The position numbers and the translations under genes were made by a program. Positions 1 through 62,897 of a stretch of 64,000 nucleotides of DNA are shown piece after piece. Below the pieces are notes generated by a model that did not search any database, was not told where the DNA came from, and saw only the letters and a program-made list of their open reading frames with translations. This DNA comes from Escherichia phage F2. Location: the sequence record NC_054913.1, one strand, 5' to 3'. How positions within the stretch are numbered: position 1 is the stretch's first letter; every line of letters starts with the position of its first letter.

Positions 1-2
1 AT

Positions 3-218
3 ATGTTTGAAGTGCTTGATAATGCAGCCGAACTCAGAGTTCATGCTCAACTAACTCATGTACTCAATGCTTTGCTCCCAGACCAAGTAGATTCTATTGC
101 TATTACTCTTCTCCCTGGGTCTGCACACGTCATAGTGGTATTTGATCTTGACGGCGATTTAGTTATCCAATGTGATATCAATTTCGGTACACAAAAAATT
201 GAATGCAAAGCAATTTAA
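3..218 (+). CDS. hypothetical protein (ORFan)
   Basis: 71-codon ORF from the track; co-directional with the early genes; no recognisable motif. Confidence 0.3.
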   Translation: MFEVLDNAAELRVHAQLTHVLNALLPDQVDSIAITLLPGSAHVIVVFDLDGDLVIQCDINFGTQKIECKAI

Positions 219-278
219 TGGTTTACAACATGGTGGAGTTGTGATACTATAACTCTACCAACAAATGAGGAAATAGAA

Positions 279-515
279 ATGCTAAGTGAAAACCCAATTA
301 CAGTACACGAATTTCAGATTAAAGTAAAAGAATTTGCTCAAGCACTCATCAATAAAGTGTCTGAACGTTTCCAAGATGCAACATTACGAGTTATTCAAGA
401 ATCTCCACGTTCTTTTCTCATAATCGTTAATCCTAAAGATGGTGACCAAATTACTAATCTTAAATTAGGCAGTGATGGTCTTGTTGAAGCAACTCGAGTA
501 TATGGAACACTATAA
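279..515 (+). CDS. hypothetical protein (ORFan, 78 aa)
   Basis: ORF preceded by GAGGAAATAGAAATG; no recognisable motif. Confidence 0.4.
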   Translation: MLSENPITVHEFQIKVKEFAQALINKVSERFQDATLRVIQESPRSFLIIVNPKDGDQITNLKLGSDGLVEATRVYGTL

Positions 516-635
516 TGAGAGCTATCTCATTACTATCGTGAATGGTCATAAATCTGAGAACTACCAACTTAGCCTGTCTAATCCGGTTAAAGGTATTGTT
601 GAATCAGAATCTGTTTATATCTCCTAAGGATTGTT

Positions 636-1628
636 ATGTTACCTGTCATCAGAAAACTTATTTCTCCAAAAGAACTGGCTGAGATTATTCCTTTGTCGGA
701 AGCTTACGCATCACAAGTGGCTTCTCATCGCGAACAAGTTAATTCGATTATGAACGGTGAAGACCCACGCAAACTTATTGTTGTAGGTCCTTGTTCAATT
801 CATGACCCTATTGCTGCTGTTGAATACGGCAAACGTCTGGCTGAACTTCAAACTCGTCTTCCTAATGTTCTGTTAGTGATGCGCGTTTATTTTGAAAAGC
901 CTCGAACTACCGTAGGTTGGAAAGGTCTTGTAAATGATCCATATCTTGACGGAAGTTTTGATATGAACCACGGTCTTATAGTTGCACGAACATTGTGTCG
1001 TAAACTTCTACGTATGGGACTTCCATTAGCAACTGAAGTATTAGACCCATTCACGATTAAGTATCTTTCTGGTATTTTCTCATGGGTTGCTATTGGCGCC
1101 CGTACGACTGAAAGTCAGACACATCGTGAAATTGCTTCAGGTCTACCGATGTGCGTAGGCTTCAAGAACGCAACCAATGGTTCTATTAAAGTAGCTACAG
1201 ACGCGATGTATAGTGCCGCCTGGCCTCATCGGTATATGGGTATGGACGTCGATGGTACTGTAGGCATTGTTGAAGCTGAAGGTAATCAGAATACGCATAT
1301 CGTATTGCGTGGCGGGACCAACGGCCCGAACTATCATTCTTCTGATATTCAAGAAGCTTCTAACAAAGCAAGGGCAGTAGGTCTGAATCATTATGTAATG
1401 GTTGACTGTAGCCATGCAAACGCTGATGGTCATTATAGCAATCAAATTGGTATTGGTAAAAATTTAGCAGCTAATGATTTGGTCAAAGGAATTATGATAG
1501 AATCATTCCTACATGAAGGAAATCAAAAAATTTCTGATAATATGTCCTATGGCGTTTCCGTTACCGATGCGTGCATCAGTTGGGAACAAACTAAAGAGCT
1601 GTTAACTTATATTAATAAGGTTCAATAA
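636..1628 (+). CDS. 3-deoxy-D-arabino-heptulosonate-7-phosphate (DAHP) synthase, class I (AroG/F/H-like)
   Basis: 330 aa; blocks LIVVGPCSIHDP, MRVYFEKPRTTVGWKGL, IGARTTESQTHRE, GFKN, HIVLRGG, GIMIESFLHEGNQ match class I DAHP synthases; stop overlaps cd start (TAATG). Confidence 0.9.
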   Translation: MLPVIRKLISPKELAEIIPLSEAYASQVASHREQVNSIMNGEDPRKLIVVGPCSIHDPIAAVEYGKRLAELQTRLPNVLLVMRVYFEKPRTTVGWKGLVNDPYLDGSFDMNHGLIVARTLCRKLLRMGLPLATEVLDPFTIKYLSGIFSWVAIGARTTESQTHREIASGLPMCVGFKNATNGSIKVATDAMYSAAWPHRYMGMDVDGTVGIVEAEGNQNTHIVLRGGTNGPNYHSSDIQEASNKARAVGLNHYVMVDCSHANADGHYSNQIGIGKNLAANDLVKGIMIESFLHEGNQKISDNMSYGVSVTDACISWEQTKELLTYINKVQ

Positions 1629-2209
1629 TGAAAGCTAGCACATACCTTCAGATTGCATATCTGATTTCTCAAGAATCAAAATGTTGTTCATGGAAAGTTG
1701 GCGCAGTCATTGAAAAAGATGGGCGCATTATTTCTACTGGGTATAACGGTTCACCTGCAGGTGGCGTTAACTGTTGCGAACATGCATCTGAAAATGGTTG
1801 GTTGAAGAATAAACCAAGCCCGGTCATCGTTGCTGGACATAAAGAAGGCACTACAGCATTTGGACGGGTGGATAATTTTGTTTTGGCTAAAGAACATCGG
1901 GCCGCTCATAGTGCATGGTCTGCTAATAACGAAATCCATGCTGAATTGAATGCAATTTTGTTTGCAGCTCGTAAAGGTAATTCTATTGAAGGTGCTACGT
2001 TATATACGACGCTTTCTCCGTGTCCTGATTGCACTAAAGCTATTACGCAGTCAGGTATTAAAAAGGTTGTATACGCAGAATTATATGACAGATCTCCTGA
2101 AAATTGGGCAGACATTCTAAAACAAGCTGGTATTGAAGTAATTCAGTACTCTCGTAATAATCTTCGTTCTCTGAATTGGGAACAAATCCGAAACTTTTGT
2201 GGTGAATAA
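1628..2209 (+). CDS. cd: dCMP deaminase
   Basis: 193 aa as in T4 Cd; zinc-binding HAELNA and SPCPDC motifs of the cytidine/dCMP deaminase fold. Confidence 0.9.
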   Translation: MKASTYLQIAYLISQESKCCSWKVGAVIEKDGRIISTGYNGSPAGGVNCCEHASENGWLKNKPSPVIVAGHKEGTTAFGRVDNFVLAKEHRAAHSAWSANNEIHAELNAILFAARKGNSIEGATLYTTLSPCPDCTKAITQSGIKKVVYAELYDRSPENWADILKQAGIEVIQYSRNNLRSLNWEQIRNFCGE

Positions 2210-2210
2210 T

Positions 2211-2507
2211 ATGATTTTAACTGAACAGGAAACTATGGTTCTTCGTGAACGTATTAAAACTATTCTGTCTGTAGGCGTTCATTGTGTTGTATTTGAAAAG
2301 GCTAACGGTGAGGTACGCACTATGTTTGCTTCGCGCGATGAACTTGAAGTCAAATATGAAAATAACAATCCGGCAACAGAAGTTCGTTATGAACCTCGTG
2401 AATCAGTTCGAGCATTCGATACCAAGTTAGGTCAGTGGCGTTCTTTCCGCCTTGATAAAGTAATTTCGGTTGATGGTACTCCTGTAGAACGTTTGCTTCT
2501 TATGTAA
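2211..2507 (+). CDS. hypothetical protein (gene 31.x-like position)
   Basis: ORF with ATG at 2211 just after the cd stop; track start at 2199 is GTG. Confidence 0.5.
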   Translation: MILTEQETMVLRERIKTILSVGVHCVVFEKANGEVRTMFASRDELEVKYENNNPATEVRYEPRESVRAFDTKLGQWRSFRLDKVISVDGTPVERLLLM

Positions 2508-2534
2508 TATGCTTTACGAATAGTATGGTATTAT
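2508..2534 (+). promoter_or_regulatory. putative MotA-dependent middle promoter upstream of gene 31
   Basis: MotA-box-like TGCTTTA at 2510-2516 and TATTAT 12 bp downstream at 2529-2534. Confidence 0.45.
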
Positions 2535-2564
2535 TAATCTATCGTCAAACAACAAGGAAATAAG

Positions 2565-2897
2565 ATGTCTGAAGTACAACTCCCAATTCGTGCTGTTGGT
2601 GAATATGTCATTCTGGTTTCTGAACCCGCTCAAGCAGGTGATGAAGAAGTTACAGAATCAGGACTTGTGATTGGTAAACGTGTTCAAGGTGAAGTTCCTG
2701 AACTATGTGTAGTTCATTCTGTAGGTCCTGATGTTCCTGAAGGTTTTGTTGAAGTCGGTGATTTGACTCCACTACCAGTTGGACAAATTCGAAATGTTCC
2801 ACATCCATTTGTGGCTTTGGGACTTAAACAACCTAAAGAAATTAAACAGAAATTCGTAACATGCCACTATAAAGCTATTCCGTGTCTTTATAAGTGA
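2565..2897 (+). CDS. 31: gp31 co-chaperonin (GroES-like)
   Basis: 110 aa; near-collinear with T4 gp31 from recall ([34 protein letters not shown] ... [13 protein letters not shown]). Confidence 0.85.
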
Positions 2898-3021
2898 TAT
2901 AAATAACTATATGAAGAGAACACTCTTCTAAGCGGTAGCCTACAACTGAGAGACTTGTCGAAAGAAGGTGAAATTCAGACGAACGTGGCTACTAAATATT
3001 ATCTCGAATTGAGAATTTAAA

Positions 3022-3270
3022 ATGATTAAACAATTACAACACGCTCTTGAACTGCAACGAAACGCATGGAATAACGGTCACGAAAACTACGGTGCGTCAA
3101 TTGATGTTGAAGCCGAAGCACTGGAAATCCTGCGATATTTCAAACATCTGAATCCTGCTCAGGCTACTCTGGCTTCTGAACTGGAAGCTAAAGATGAATT
3201 GAAATATGCTAAGCCTCTGGCTTCTGCAGCACGCAAAGCAGTTCGTCATTTTGTTATTACCCTGAAGTAA
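3022..3270 (+). CDS. hypothetical protein (82 aa)
   Basis: ORF in the hyperplastic 30.x region; no motif recognised. Confidence 0.45.
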   Translation: MIKQLQHALELQRNAWNNGHENYGASIDVEAEALEILRYFKHLNPAQATLASELEAKDELKYAKPLASAARKAVRHFVITLK

Positions 3271-3292
3271 GTTAAATCGAGGAGCCGTCGAA

Positions 3293-3484
3293 TTGTCTGA
3301 TTATCGATTTGCGAATCGGTATGTTTTAGAAGTACCGCCCCGACAATTTTACGGTGTACCTCTTGAATGTTACTATCATGCGTCAGAAAAGTGTTATCTG
3401 TGTAAGTCTTGGTGGTATGATGACGAGGTTTATGGTTATCCTGTCGTTAAATATCCAAAACCTATGTTCCCCTTGAGGGCTTGA
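3293..3484 (+). CDS. hypothetical Cys/Tyr-rich small protein
   Basis: 63-codon ORF with TTG start preceded by GAGGAG; weak. Confidence 0.3.
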   Translation: MSDYRFANRYVLEVPPRQFYGVPLECYYHASEKCYLCKSWWYDDEVYGYPVVKYPKPMFPLRA

Positions 3485-3532
3485 GCAGGCCATGTCAATA
3501 AGTCCTGCATTTTCATTTAAAGAGAATTTATA

Positions 3533-3712
3533 ATGGCAAAACAAGCTAAAGCAAAGAAAGCAGTTGAAAAGAAAGTTGATGGTACCTCTAAACGCGCTGG
3601 ATACAAGCGTGGGTCGAACTCTCGTATTAATCAAACAGTTGAGAAGATCATGCGCAGAGCACGTGCAGTTCTTCGAGATGATGCTTCTCGTTTTGGAAAG
3701 GTTGTTGCATAA
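3533..3712 (+). CDS. small highly basic protein (59 aa), not in the ORF track
   Basis: ATG at 3533; translation MAKQAKAKKAVEKKVDGTSKRAGYKRGSNSRINQTVEKIMRRARAVLRDDASRFGKVVA; followed by a terminator hairpin. Confidence 0.45.
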   Translation: MAKQAKAKKAVEKKVDGTSKRAGYKRGSNSRINQTVEKIMRRARAVLRDDASRFGKVVA

Positions 3713-3717
3713 TTTTA

Positions 3718-3740
3718 GGGAGACTTCGGTCTCCCTTTTG
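3718..3740 (+). terminator. rho-independent terminator hairpin
   Basis: GGGAGAC-TTCG-GTCTCCC followed by TTTTG. Confidence 0.6.
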
Positions 3741-3772
3741 TGCGTTTAGGGCAGAAAAAGTTTAAAAAAGAT

Positions 3773-3801
3773 GTTTACTCTCCTGTAGGATGTGTTACTA
3801 T
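3773..3801 (+). promoter_or_regulatory. T4-type early promoter
   Basis: GTTTAC at 3773-3778, 17-bp spacer, TACTAT at 3796-3801; downstream block shared with the other early promoters. Confidence 0.55.
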
Positions 3802-3842
3802 AGACTTGTACCACCTAATCAATAAAACAATCGGAGAATAAA

Positions 3843-4211
3843 ATGAAAATCAATCTGAACTCATACATCAAATGTAAAGACCACGACGGTTATAAAGCTA
3901 TCGAAATTAAAGAATTCCAGTGGATGTTATACAAAGAGCAATTTGAGTTCGTAGGTTGTATGACCCCTGAAGGTCCTTCAGATGATTTCTCTTGGAAAAT
4001 TGTGTTAGCAAACTTTTTCACAGGTGACACATACGAATTAAAAACTATTATTACCGGTAAAATTCGTTCAGAAACATATGTTGACGAAGAAACTGGTTAC
4101 TCTGAAGATGTTACATGGTATCAAAATGGACGCATTACAGCAGATAACCTGATCGAAAAAATGAAAGCCAAAGGTGTTTTAAATTTAGACAATTGGATTA
4201 AAGTTGCATAA
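3843..4211 (+). CDS. hypothetical protein (ORFan, 122 aa)
   Basis: ORF with RBS GGAGAATAAAATG and its own early promoter. Confidence 0.55.
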   Translation: MKINLNSYIKCKDHDGYKAIEIKEFQWMLYKEQFEFVGCMTPEGPSDDFSWKIVLANFFTGDTYELKTIITGKIRSETYVDEETGYSEDVTWYQNGRITADNLIEKMKAKGVLNLDNWIKVA

Positions 4212-4215
4212 AACA

Positions 4216-4255
4216 GTTTACTTTGGTACAGGTTATGTTATTATAGACCTGTACC
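4216..4255 (+). promoter_or_regulatory. T4-type early promoter with stem-loop (PeSL-like)
   Basis: GTTTAC at 4216-4221, 17-bp spacer, TATTAT at 4239-4244; perfect 8-bp inverted repeat GGTACAGG (4225-4232) / CCTGTACC (4248-4255). Confidence 0.6.
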
Positions 4256-4285
4256 AACAAACAACTTAAACATCTGGAGAATAAA

Positions 4286-59355: not shown

Positions 59356-60090
59356 ATGGAGCTAATCTTTTTAAGCGGCATCAAACGTAGTGGTAAAGAC
59401 ACCACTGCCGATTACATCAATTCAAACTTTAAATCCGTAAAATACCAATTGGCCTATCCGATTAAAGACGCCCTAGCAATAGCCTGGGGACGTAGACATG
59501 CCGAAAACCCTGATGTATTCACTGAGTTGAAATATGAATACTTTGAAGGCATTGGATACGACCGTGAAACACCATTAAATCTCAATAAGTTGGATGTTAT
59601 TGAATTATTGGAAGAAGCGCTAATTTATTTACAAAGTCAATATTTACCAATTAATAATGTTAAAGTATTATCATCATTAGAAGGTGGGTATTCATATCTA
59701 GATATTAAACCATATGAAGCCCTGCGTGAAGCTATAAATAATATCAACGACACATGGTCAATCCGCCGTCTTATGCAAGCCCTCGGTACGGATGTTGTCG
59801 TTAATTTATTTGACCGTATGTATTGGGTTAAACTTTTTGCATTAAACTATATGGATTATATTGGAAGTGATTTCGATTACTATGTTGTAACCGATACACG
59901 CCAAGTCCATGAAATGGAAACCGCTAGAGCGATGGGTGCTACAGTTATTCATGTGGTTCGCTCTGGTACGGAATCCACTGATAAACATATTACAGAAGCT
60001 GGGTTGCCTATTGAAGAAGGCGATTTAGTTATTACAAACGACGGCTCTTTAGAAGAGCTTTATTCTAAAATTGAAACAATCTTAAGGTAA
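59356..60090 (+). CDS. 1: deoxynucleoside monophosphate kinase gp1
   Basis: 244 aa versus T4 241; P-loop GIKRSGKDT. Confidence 0.85.
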   Translation: MELIFLSGIKRSGKDTTADYINSNFKSVKYQLAYPIKDALAIAWGRRHAENPDVFTELKYEYFEGIGYDRETPLNLNKLDVIELLEEALIYLQSQYLPINNVKVLSSLEGGYSYLDIKPYEALREAINNINDTWSIRRLMQALGTDVVVNLFDRMYWVKLFALNYMDYIGSDFDYYVVTDTRQVHEMETARAMGATVIHVVRSGTESTDKHITEAGLPIEEGDLVITNDGSLEELYSKIETILR

Positions 60091-60094
60091 TAAA

Positions 60095-60780
<686 letters not shown>

Positions 60781-60793
60781 TTTTCACAAAACA

Positions 60794-60829
60794 GTTTACA
60801 TAAGGATGATGGTGTGTTACTATCATCCT
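60794..60829 (+). promoter_or_regulatory. T4-type early promoter with stem-loop (PeSL-like)
   Basis: GTTTAC at 60794-60799, TACTAT at 60818-60823; 8-bp inverted repeat AGGATGAT / ATCATCCT around the -10. Confidence 0.6.
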
Positions 60830-60857
60830 ATCAAATAAACGACCTCAAGGAAATAAA

Positions 60858-61145
60858 ATGAAAACCTATAAAGAATTTATATCACCTGTTGCTAACGTTT
60901 CTACTCTGACCGAAGCAACCCTTACTTCCGAAGTTATTAAAGCAAATAAAGGACGTGAGGGTAAACCAATGATTAGTCTGGTTGACGGCGAAGAAGTAAA
61001 AGGTACTGTTTACTTAGGGGATGGATGGTCTGCTAAGAAAGATGGCGCTACTATTGTTATCTCTCCGGCTGAAGAGACTGCACTGTTTAAAGCTAAGCAT
61101 ATTTCTGTAGCTCAGCTTAAAATTATTGCAAAAACTCTTCTGTAA
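60858..61145 (+). CDS. internal-protein-like capsid-packaged protein
   Basis: 95 aa; N-terminus MKTYKEFISPVANVSTLTE matches the T4 internal-protein capsid-targeting sequence (MKTYQEFIAE, recalled) and an L-x-E protease-site pattern. Confidence 0.6.
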   Translation: MKTYKEFISPVANVSTLTEATLTSEVIKANKGREGKPMISLVDGEEVKGTVYLGDGWSAKKDGATIVISPAEETALFKAKHISVAQLKIIAKTLL

Positions 61146-61149
61146 AGTA

Positions 61150-61186
61150 GTTTACATGCTGATAGGACTATGTTATAGTAGTCCTA
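61150..61186 (+). promoter_or_regulatory. T4-type early promoter with stem-loop (PeSL-like)
   Basis: GTTTAC at 61150-61155, TATAGT at 61174-61179; perfect 9-bp inverted repeat ATAGGACTA / TAGTCCTAT. Confidence 0.6.
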
Positions 61187-61216
61187 TCAAATCAAATGAG
61201 TAAATGGAGAAATAAA

Positions 61217-61402
61217 ATGAAACGCGCTGAACTGATTCGTAATGTTGCTGTAGTAATTGCTTCAATGGCTTTTAGTTTTTCGATGTTTGTAGGATTCATT
61301 TGTGGACTACTGACAACAACAGAAAATTCTATCTCATTGGTAGTAGCATTTCTAATCGGTTTAATCGCTATCGTTATGGATAAAATTTCTAAAGGTGAAT
61401 AG
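61217..61402 (+). CDS. small membrane protein (61 aa, two predicted TM helices)
   Basis: ATG 61217 after GGAGAAATAAAATG; hydrophobic stretches VAVVIASMAFSFSMFVGFICGLL and LVVAFLIGLIAIVM. Confidence 0.45.
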   Translation: MKRAELIRNVAVVIASMAFSFSMFVGFICGLLTTTENSISLVVAFLIGLIAIVMDKISKGE

Positions 61403-61780: not shown

Positions 61781-62071
61781 ATGATTCTTTATGCGAAAGT
61801 ATCATCCATTGAAAATGGATATAAATATGATCAAGAAGCAGCTAAAGCCTTGATTGATGATTATGGCATTTTAACATGTTTTGAAGTTGAAAAGGTTTAC
61901 ATCGACCGTTCGTCTTCACAGGTTAAATTACTCTGTGAAGATGATAAATTTAACACAGTTAACTTTGATTTCTTTATTGAAACAGAAAAAGGTCCTCTTG
62001 AATATGATATTTTCAAGAATCCTTTGAAATTACGTTGCATTGAATATAATTACATTAATACGGTACGGTGA
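61781..62071 (+). CDS. hypothetical protein (96 aa)
   Basis: tightly packed ORF. Confidence 0.5.
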   Translation: MILYAKVSSIENGYKYDQEAAKALIDDYGILTCFEVEKVYIDRSSSQVKLLCEDDKFNTVNFDFFIETEKGPLEYDIFKNPLKLRCIEYNYINTVR

Positions 62072-62075
62072 TTAA

Positions 62076-62591
62076 ATGAATATTTGTTTAGGCAGTACAA
62101 TTCCTAAAGGTTATGTAATTGATGTCACTACTTGGGAAAATGACGGTGACAACTATAAAACCAAAACATTATTTGGTGTAGAAGAGCATGAGCTCCAACA
62201 GTTTAAATATCTCTTGAAGAAATTTAAGAGTCGTCATTCTAGTACTAAAGCTGAACGTTACTGTGGTAATACACTATTCAGTGATTGCTCGCTTTTAATC
62301 TATGAATACTTGGTTGAAGGACTGTTCTCAGACCAGCTTTATCCAGAATTCATTAAAAAGGTCTTTGATATTGAAGTCGACCTCGGTAATAAATCTGAAG
62401 AAGACGAATCACGTGTATTTGACCTGTTCCGTGAGAATGGATATTTGGTATCAGAAGGTCTCACTGATATTCTTGGCCATGCTTCCGAATATTATGATTA
62501 TGATTTCTTGCGTGTAGTTGAACGTGTCGAATTTGCTTATATTGAAGAAGAAATCGTTTTGCCAACCGTTAAAATGATTGATTTGCTTTAA
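62076..62591 (+). CDS. hypothetical protein (171 aa)
   Basis: ORF; acidic C-terminal half. Confidence 0.5.
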   Translation: MNICLGSTIPKGYVIDVTTWENDGDNYKTKTLFGVEEHELQQFKYLLKKFKSRHSSTKAERYCGNTLFSDCSLLIYEYLVEGLFSDQLYPEFIKKVFDIEVDLGNKSEEDESRVFDLFRENGYLVSEGLTDILGHASEYYDYDFLRVVERVEFAYIEEEIVLPTVKMIDLL

Positions 62592-62670: not shown

Positions 62671-62745
62671 GGCCCTGTAGCTCAATGGGAGAGCTGTCAG
62701 CTCATAACTGATAGGTAGCTGGATCGAAACCAGCCAGGGCCACCA
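62671..62745 (+). tRNA. tRNA with CAU anticodon (Met, or lysidine-modified Ile2)
   Basis: manual cloverleaf: acceptor GGCCCTG/CAGGGCC, D arm GCTC/GAGC, anticodon loop CTCATAA, T arm GCTGG-ATCGAAA-CCAGC, encoded CCA. Confidence 0.8.
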
Positions 62746-62751
62746 AACAAA

Positions 62752-62823
62752 TGGTGCATCGTATAAAGGTTATTACGGGGAGCTGTTAACTCCTTTATCT
62801 TGGTTCGAGTCCAAGTGCGCCAG
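62752..62823 (+). tRNA. tRNA-Asn (GUU anticodon), putative
   Basis: manual fold: acceptor TGGTGCA/TGCGCCA with one G-U pair, anticodon loop CTGTTAA, T arm CTTGG-TTCGAGT-CCAAG; D stem has one mismatch. Confidence 0.55.
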
Positions 62824-62868
62824 TAATTTAAACGAAGTAAATTAAGTGCTCTATCCAAATAATAAATA

Positions 62869-62887
62869 CTCCTATATTTTATAGGAG
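62869..62887 (+). promoter_or_regulatory. RBS-sequestering hairpin upstream of the endonuclease gene
   Basis: CTCCTATA-TTT-TATAGGAG perfect 8-bp stem containing the Shine-Dalgarno GGAG; AATAAATA late-promoter-like box at 62861-62868. Confidence 0.5.
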
Positions 62888-62897
62888 ATAATTGGTA

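Follow-up and report, generated by a model that had tools for sequence, protein, structure and literature searches.

The closest described counterpart of the locus analysed here is the internal protein I gene (ipI) of bacteriophage T4. For the mature protein (IPI*), published work describes ~360 copies per T4 head, injection together with the DNA and neutralization of the GmrSD enzyme of Escherichia coli CT596. The targets of IPI are type IV restriction enzymes, namely the GmrSD of E. coli CT596 and that of STEC_94C, Eco94GmrSD (PMC4437046, PMC12373910); knowledge of the target dates from 2007. The T4 proteins Ip1, Ip2 and Ip3 each inhibit a different GmrSD variant, in pairs reported to be strictly specific (PMC12373910). 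The cleavage motif of the gp21 prohead protease is L/I-x-E, as set out in work that also describes the role of the targeting sequence (PMC9026906). A second described system concerns the promoters of such genes. In T4-type phages, promoter-early stem-loop (PeSL) cassettes consist of an A/T-rich region, a sigma-70-like promoter, a stem-loop, a Shine–Dalgarno sequence and an ATG, in that order, with the stem-loop placed between the -35 and -10 hexamers or over the -10, and such elements flank variable small genes (Arbiol et al. 2010, PMC2839356; Comeau et al. 2014, PMC4122927). The PST/T4 consensus is TTTACW-N17-TAYWAT, with stems that often read AGNA...TCNT (PMC4122927), and for the PeSLs of RB49 a function of the stem-loop has been demonstrated, the terminator assay having used a GC-rich stem (Arbiol et al. 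2010; Comeau et al. 2014).

We analysed a window of 64,000 nucleotides from Escherichia phage F2 (NC_054913.1; coordinates below are window positions, and all features listed lie on the + strand). The final 6 kb carry, on that strand, T4 genes 2, 3, 1 (dNMP kinase; 59356–60090), 57A (60095–60325) and 57B (Acb1; 60325–60780), then two small open reading frames (ORFs) of 95 and 61 aa, with homologs of trna.3 and trna.2 (matching PHROG 1411 and PHROG 2023), a 171-aa ORF and tRNA genes downstream of the 61-aa ORF. This gene order is identical in the window, T4 (AF158101) and RB27. A 1.5-kb query centred on the ipI/trna.4 region matched 733 phage records, with Escherichia phage vB_EcoM_JQD51 as the top match (99.4% identity) and T4-type phages at ~81%. 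Judged by homology and gene order, the window end is the gp2-gp3-gp1-57A-57B-ipI-trna.4-trna.3-trna.2-tRNA segment of a T4-like phage (Tevenvirinae), and we hold with high confidence the combined reading in which ipI and trna.4 each stand behind a PeSL within this T4-like segment.

The 95-aa ORF (60858–61145) is preceded by the Shine–Dalgarno sequence AGGA (60848–60851; not GGAG), 6 nt ahead of its ATG, and is flanked, like its T4 counterpart, by 57B and trna.4. Its product matches the whole of the Pfam profile PF11634 (IPI_T4; positions 1–76 of 76, E = 1.3e-50; score 169.7 bits, cut-off 25) as well as PHROG 4363 (internal virion protein), and its sole match among solved structures is PDB 2JUB, ‘Internal protein I’ (2JUB_A; E = 5.8e-42), in which query residues 20–95 align with chain residues 1–76 at 72 of 76 identical positions (95%). 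As the 2JUB chain is aligned from residue 20, the mature protein is expected to start directly after L17-T18-E19, the single L/I-x-E motif in the ORF; at the junction, MKTYKEFISPVANVSTLTE is followed by ATLTSEV, and the propeptide ends at the residue before the first 2JUB residue. The precursor can be divided into a predicted propeptide (residues 1–19, MKTYKEFISPVANVSTLTE; 60858–60914), that is, a capsid-targeting sequence ending in L-T-E, and a mature IPI* of 76 aa (60915–61142; ~8.0 kDa, pI ~9.0). On the combined grounds of Pfam, PHROG, T4 identity and synteny, the 95-aa ORF is the ortholog of T4 ipI and encodes the predicted precursor of internal protein I (Ip1). A sequence-only reading of this region had correctly recognized both the capsid-targeting N terminus of a T4-type internal protein and the L-x-E protease pattern, which turns out to abut the N terminus of mature IPI* in 2JUB. 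The start MKTYQEFIAE, which that reading had given for T4 internal proteins, does occur on other internal-protein genes at this position in related phages (L007 and L010), whereas T4 IpI itself begins MKTFKEFTSTTTPVSTITE (MKTFKEFTS).

The same reading had taken the protein for a member of a hypervariable family with unknown specificity, which amounts to proposing a new injected internal protein directed against an unidentified defence system. The capsid-targeting sequence and the L-x-E site would suit such a protein, as would the unrelated internal proteins that other phages carry between 57B and trna.4 and the narrow, non-overlapping GmrSD targets of the T4 internal proteins. However, over its mature part the protein shares 95% identity with T4 IPI*, whose GmrSD target is known, and is thus IPI itself rather than a candidate of unknown specificity, and it is the content of the 57B–trna.4 interval that varies rather than the gene: against T4, the mature part has a dN/dS of 0.03 at a dS of 0.8, which indicates that the mature protein has been kept constant over a long divergence, and 278 of the 290 phage records with ipI homologs are at least 80% identical (22 of them at least 99%). 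The same protein, moreover, already carries the annotation IPI or nuclease inhibitor, and a 100% identical one occurs in O157 typing phage 6, moha and ChristianSchoenbein under the names nuclease inhibitor or internal head protein. We therefore regard a new internal protein as highly improbable. A narrower departure from T4 would be an allele retargeted to another GmrSD variant. At the DNA level ipI is 83% identical to T4, with 4 amino-acid changes in the mature part (I28V, A65V, H67Q and N74T), of which three lie in the C-terminal segment; inhibitors are reported to pair with their enzymes in a strictly specific way, and the phage alleles fall into two main groups, at ≥95% and at 80–90% identity to the window. 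Retargeting is nevertheless very unlikely in our view, given that each of the four changes is conservative (I/V, A/V, H/Q and N/T), that purifying selection is strong and that positive selection was not detected. Selection on the propeptide is looser than on the mature part (dN/dS of 0.31 against T4), and the precursor as a whole is 88% identical to T4 IpI.

For the product of a T4 ipI ortholog, the following course of events can be envisioned. The N-terminal 19 residues would direct the precursor into the prohead core, where the gp21 protease would cut after L17-T18-E19, and the resulting 76-residue IPI* would be packed with the DNA and then injected. Once inside the host, it would block GmrSD-type type IV enzymes (of the CT596 and Eco94 type) that would otherwise cut glucosyl-hydroxymethylcytosine DNA. 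We infer packaging, cleavage and injection of the window IPI* from homology, and its presumed inhibition of GmrSD from the 95% identity together with the strong purifying selection.

Both genes stand behind a predicted strong early promoter that is overlapped by a 12-bp hairpin lying across its -10 region. In PeSL 1 (60794–60829), ahead of ipI, the -35 hexamer TTTACA (60795–60800) is followed by a 17-nt spacer, a TGn motif (TGt at 60815–60817, with the TG at 60815–60816) and the -10 hexamer TACTAT (60818–60823), and the hairpin occupies 60803–60829 (-15.4 kcal/mol; z = -4.8, with an equally good fold in 0 of 200 shuffles). PeSL 2 (61150–61189), ahead of trna.4, has the same -35 hexamer (TTTACA, 61151–61156) and 17-nt spacer, TGt at 61171–61173 (TG at 61171–61172), the -10 hexamer TATAGT (61174–61179) and a hairpin at 61160–61189 (-17.7 kcal/mol; z = -6.2, again with no equally good fold among 200 shuffles). 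The two promoters with stem-loops and the two ORFs that had been described from the letters alone are thus all in place, and both hairpins outdo every shuffle. Transcription would start at approximately 60830 (PeSL 1) and 61186 (PeSL 2), some 7 nt past the -10. A generic sigma-70 scan of the region gave no excess of sites over chance (20 against 23.9 expected). By the stricter T4-early form (TTTAC[AT], a spacer of 16–18 nt, TG and TAnnnT, then a Shine–Dalgarno sequence and ATG), 7 of 12 looser hits were retained on the + strand of the window and 0 on the - strand. Six further PeSL-like early promoters lie elsewhere in the window, all of them on the + strand, and this restriction to one strand agrees with the direction of early transcription. 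A search of Rfam with the hairpins gave no family, whether at the gathering threshold or at E ≤ 1. Masking of the ribosome-binding sites by the hairpins was considered and discarded, the Shine–Dalgarno sequences lying 17–19 nt past the stems and being unpaired in the predicted folds.

Measured against the published cassettes, both elements are intergenic, with A/T-rich sequence upstream, a 17-nt spacer, and a Shine–Dalgarno sequence and ATG at the 3′ end, and their stems read AGGA...TCCT, as published for PST/T4. PeSL 1 (TTTACA-17-TACTAT) fits the PST/T4 consensus exactly and has the TGn; the -10 of PeSL 2 (TATAGT), which also has the TGn, departs from TAYWAT at a single position and agrees with it at 5 of 6. 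On layout and consensus, both promoter-hairpins are PeSL elements, a type that has already been described. T4 and RB27 have the same PeSL 1 architecture with another stem sequence, and T4 has hairpins at both equivalent sites, with differing stems.

Given that the promoter consensus is itself partly self-complementary, the hairpins could in principle be a by-product of it, or chance inverted repeats, and serve no function in themselves. In many stems the inner pairs do fall inside the conserved TGnTAnnAT, a minority of the promoters between 57B and trna.4 in related phages (L012, L013, L017 and L084) have no hairpin, and neither window hairpin has a U-tract. To set against this, we compared 22 distinct sequences upstream of trna.4, drawn from phage records and IMG/VR contigs and gathered by a DNA pattern scan together with annotated phage records. 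The presence of two pairing registers made column-by-column covariation unusable, and each sequence was instead compared with its own shuffles. A hairpin better than the shuffles (p < 0.05) was found in 21 of the 22, with z from -3.6 to -7.5 in most, and the hairpins comprise at least five distinct stem sequences in the two registers. The outer stems, which extend beyond the hexamers, vary by lineage and yet stay paired (AGGACTA/TAGTCCT, AGGGTA/TACCCT, GGGATA/TATCCC and GGGCT/AGCCC), and a paired double change is seen in the stems GATAGG/CCTATC and GGTAGG/CCTACC. That pairing is kept across different stem sequences argues that the hairpin is under selection and does not simply follow from the promoter hexamers; together with the demonstrated function of the RB49 stem-loops, this leaves little likelihood for hairpins without a function. 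On this comparative evidence, the hairpin is selected for, beyond what the promoter hexamers require. The sense-strand hairpin is more stable than the antisense one in 36 of 40 cases, a count confounded by G·U pairs within TGnTAnnAT, and strand asymmetry was for this reason dropped as a sign of an RNA role on the sense strand.

What the selected hairpin may do can be envisioned from its position relative to the promoter. Transcripts from a cassette's own promoter would start at or inside the 3′ arm of the PeSL, and in these the hairpin could not form; read-through RNA arriving from upstream alone would be able to form it. Most likely, the hairpin in such read-through RNA acts as an attenuator or as a protective 3′ end, insulating each cassette. 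We suggest these roles rather than that of a classic terminator, as neither stem is followed by a U-run at its 3′ side and a terminator scan listed neither. The published terminator measurement applies to the GC-rich RB49 stem only, whereas the window stems are AU-rich and without a U-tract. The repeated PeSLs may also offer short stretches of homology at which recombination could insert, delete or exchange internal-protein cassettes between 57B and trna.4.

The early promoters bear on the timing of IPI synthesis. No late-promoter motif (TATAAATA) adjoins ipI, even with one mismatch allowed, except for a site within coding sequence; going upstream on the coding strand, the first such motif is inside gene 1 (59733–59740). 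Of the T4 middle promoters, those listed in the vicinity are P1, P57A and PtRNAE; neither ipI nor trna.4 has one. With no late promoter at ipI, late synthesis of IPI for packaging would need read-through or continued use of the early promoter. The motif at 59733 may feed late read-through transcripts that reach ipI, and it is such transcripts, crossing PeSL 1, that would supply late IPI.

The interval between the 57B stop and the trna.4 start, which in the window holds ipI, behaves in related phages as a slot of variable content. It measures from 79 nt to 1663 nt and contains from 0 to 5 ORFs, nearly all of which start with an MKT[YF]xEF-like targeting sequence and most of which stand behind a PeSL. 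In two close relatives (IMG/VR contigs L004 and L005) the slot is empty and holds one PeSL, followed by a Trna.4 that is 98% identical to that of the window. This PeSL matches the window ipI PeSL up to the -35 and the trna.4 PeSL from the 5′ arm on. Such a hybrid is the product expected of recombination between the PeSLs that flank ipI; read in the other direction, it may represent the site at which the ipI cassette was inserted. The slot data support the published cassette model and add nothing new in kind, the empty-slot relative with its hybrid PeSL being a clean example of that model. In the arrangement as a whole, trna.4 is fixed directly downstream of the variable internal-protein slot, near Acb1.

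The second ORF, trna.4 (61217–61402), encodes 61 aa and, by T4 identity, PHROG 1692 and hydropathy, a predicted two-helix inner-membrane protein. Its Shine–Dalgarno sequence, GGAG (61206–61209), is a possible RegB cleavage motif, the RegB consensus being GGAGRAYARAA (PMC3014915); the T4 sequence at this site is GGAGAATAAAA. By comparison with T4, the 61-aa start is the correct one. A 68-aa start at the ATG at 61196 was rejected: it has no Shine–Dalgarno sequence and falls inside a 9-nt stretch that is absent from T4 and RB27. The product shares 85% identity with T4 Trna.4, which is annotated as a ‘conserved hypothetical predicted membrane protein’ (AAD42682.1), and matches PHROG 1692 over positions 1–61 of 61 (E = 8.8e-33). 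Homologs occur in 777 phage records, with Escherichia, Shigella, Yersinia, Klebsiella, Salmonella, Enterobacter and Edwardsiella as hosts, and a dN/dS of 0.14 against T4 marks trna.4 as a real gene. The two transmembrane helices proposed in the sequence-only reading correspond to two hydrophobic segments predicted by hydropathy, at residues ~10–32 and ~38–54. The N terminus has a net charge of +2 and the short loop of -1, which by the positive-inside rule suggests that both ends are cytoplasmic. An N-terminal MKRxExIRNV and one loop glutamate are invariant in 15 of 15 distinct Trna.4 sequences.

That Trna.4 is a superinfection-exclusion protein or a membrane effector had been raised as a possibility from its predicted topology. 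Its small size, two predicted membrane helices and early promoter would suit such a role, as would its spread through 777 phage records under purifying selection and its position adjoining two anti-defence genes, Acb1/57B and ipI; on the other side, small size and hydrophobicity are not specific to any function, Trna.4 matches no NCBIfam or named PHROG family, and no literature on trna.4 function was found. NCBIfam returned nothing for any of the six proteins searched, and membership of a known exclusion-protein family was not found in Pfam (E ≤ 0.01) or NCBIfam. Weighing these points, we give an exclusion or effector role a small but appreciable chance. The more specific suggestion that Trna.4 acts early, at the inner membrane, as a counter-defence or exclusion factor is offered as speculation, with a slight chance of being right, and a shifted GmrSD range of the window ipI is a second, weaker possibility that we rank below it. 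Trna.4 is in any case conserved in hundreds of T4-like phages and placed in an anti-defence neighbourhood (Acb1 and IPI).

In summary, published work already covers the gene, the structure and target of its product, and the cassettes of promoter and hairpin around it, and public phage genomes contain the same allele. T4 Imm and Sp, which are superinfection-exclusion proteins, are small early membrane proteins, and Trna.4 resembles them in being small, predicted to lie in the membrane and preceded by an early promoter; it differs in having no Pfam match at E ≤ 0.01, and the sequence lends no support to a relationship. With T4 Trna.4 the correspondence is close, extending to the length of 61 aa, the position and the same downstream trna.3 and trna.2, and the nine substitutions that separate the two fall mainly in the first hydrophobic segment. 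The other internal proteins of T-even phages (IPII, IPIII and Ip4–Ip13) share the MKT[YF]xEF targeting N terminus with the window ipI, and some occupy the same 57B–trna.4 slot in related phages (Ip8 and Ip9 in QL01), whereas their mature parts are unrelated to that of the window protein, which belongs to the IPI family. It is T4 IpI that comes closest, with the same 95-aa length, the same position between 57B and trna.4 and a predicted cleavage after x-T-E at residue 19; set against this are changes at 7 of the 19 propeptide residues, the four conservative changes in the mature part and a DNA identity of only 83%, which makes the window ipI a separate, long-diverged allele of the T4 gene, present unchanged in other sequenced phages.

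The gene directly upstream of ipI (window 60858–61145, plus strand), which encodes the precursor of internal protein I (IPI), is 57B (60325–60780, plus strand), whose product matches the Pfam family Acb1 (E = 1.3e-58), an anti-CBASS protein. Acb1 and IPI are therefore encoded by two directly adjacent predicted anti-defence genes. Public annotation names these genes differently: comparison of annotations showed that 57B is called 'RNA ligase' in many RefSeq phage records, and in the closest public record (Escherichia phage vB_EcoM_JQD51, PV204681.1, positions 1–4272) product names in the ipI region are displaced by one gene, such that 'deoxynucleoside monophosphate kinase' is placed on 57A, 'tail fiber assembly protein' on 57B, 'RNA ligase' on ipI and 'internal virion protein' on trna.4.

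The two genes that follow the promoter-early stem-loops (PeSLs; that is, early promoters overlapped by a hairpin), ipI and trna.4 (61217–61402, plus strand), differ in their ribosome-binding sites. The trna.4 site (61206–61216) consists of GGAG followed by an A-rich tract and has one additional A compared with its T4 counterpart, GGAGAATAAAA, which agrees at every position with GGAGRAYARAA, the strong consensus for RegB cleavage (PMC3014915), whereas the ipI site (60848–60857) reads AGGAAAT and lacks GGAG. This difference suggests that, of these two mRNAs, RegB may inactivate only the early trna.4 mRNA, with that of ipI escaping. Five further T4-early-type promoters (that is, TTTAC[AT], 16–17 nt, TGn and TAYTAT, then SD and ATG) lie on the plus strand of the 64-kb window, at 222, 3774, 4217, 11119 and 26175; a pattern scan of its minus strand found none. 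The strong hairpins at 222 (−16.9 kcal/mol) and 4217 (−17.9 kcal/mol) mark these two elements as additional predicted PeSLs.

Further downstream lies a homologue of T4 trna.2 (61781–62071). A 2026 study found just two T4 proteins to be enriched when the defence reverse transcriptase DRT1 was pulled down; Trna.2 was among them, an enrichment that was taken no further there (PMC13275509). Between trna.2 and the tRNA genes, a 171-aa ORF (62076–62591; PHROG 2290, function unknown) occupies a place in which T4 has no ORF, yet RB27 and JQD51 have an annotated 516-nt ORF of equal length.

Between tRNA-Asn (62752–62823) and tRNA-Arg (63549–63624), a 223-aa ORF (62892–63563), the final 15 nt of which are shared with the tRNA-Arg gene, lies where T4 carries segB, a homing endonuclease gene. 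It matches PHROG 9084 ('homing endonuclease') and, in Pfam, DUF559 (21.3 bits, barely over the cut-off of 20.6), with weak NUMOD3 and RAP matches besides; Pfam does not place it in GIY-YIG. Up to the window end at 64000, ARAGORN and Rfam identified only three tRNA genes (Met, Asn and Arg; 62671–63624), whereas T4 has eight and RB27 ten; Shigella phage SP18 carries the identical set of three.
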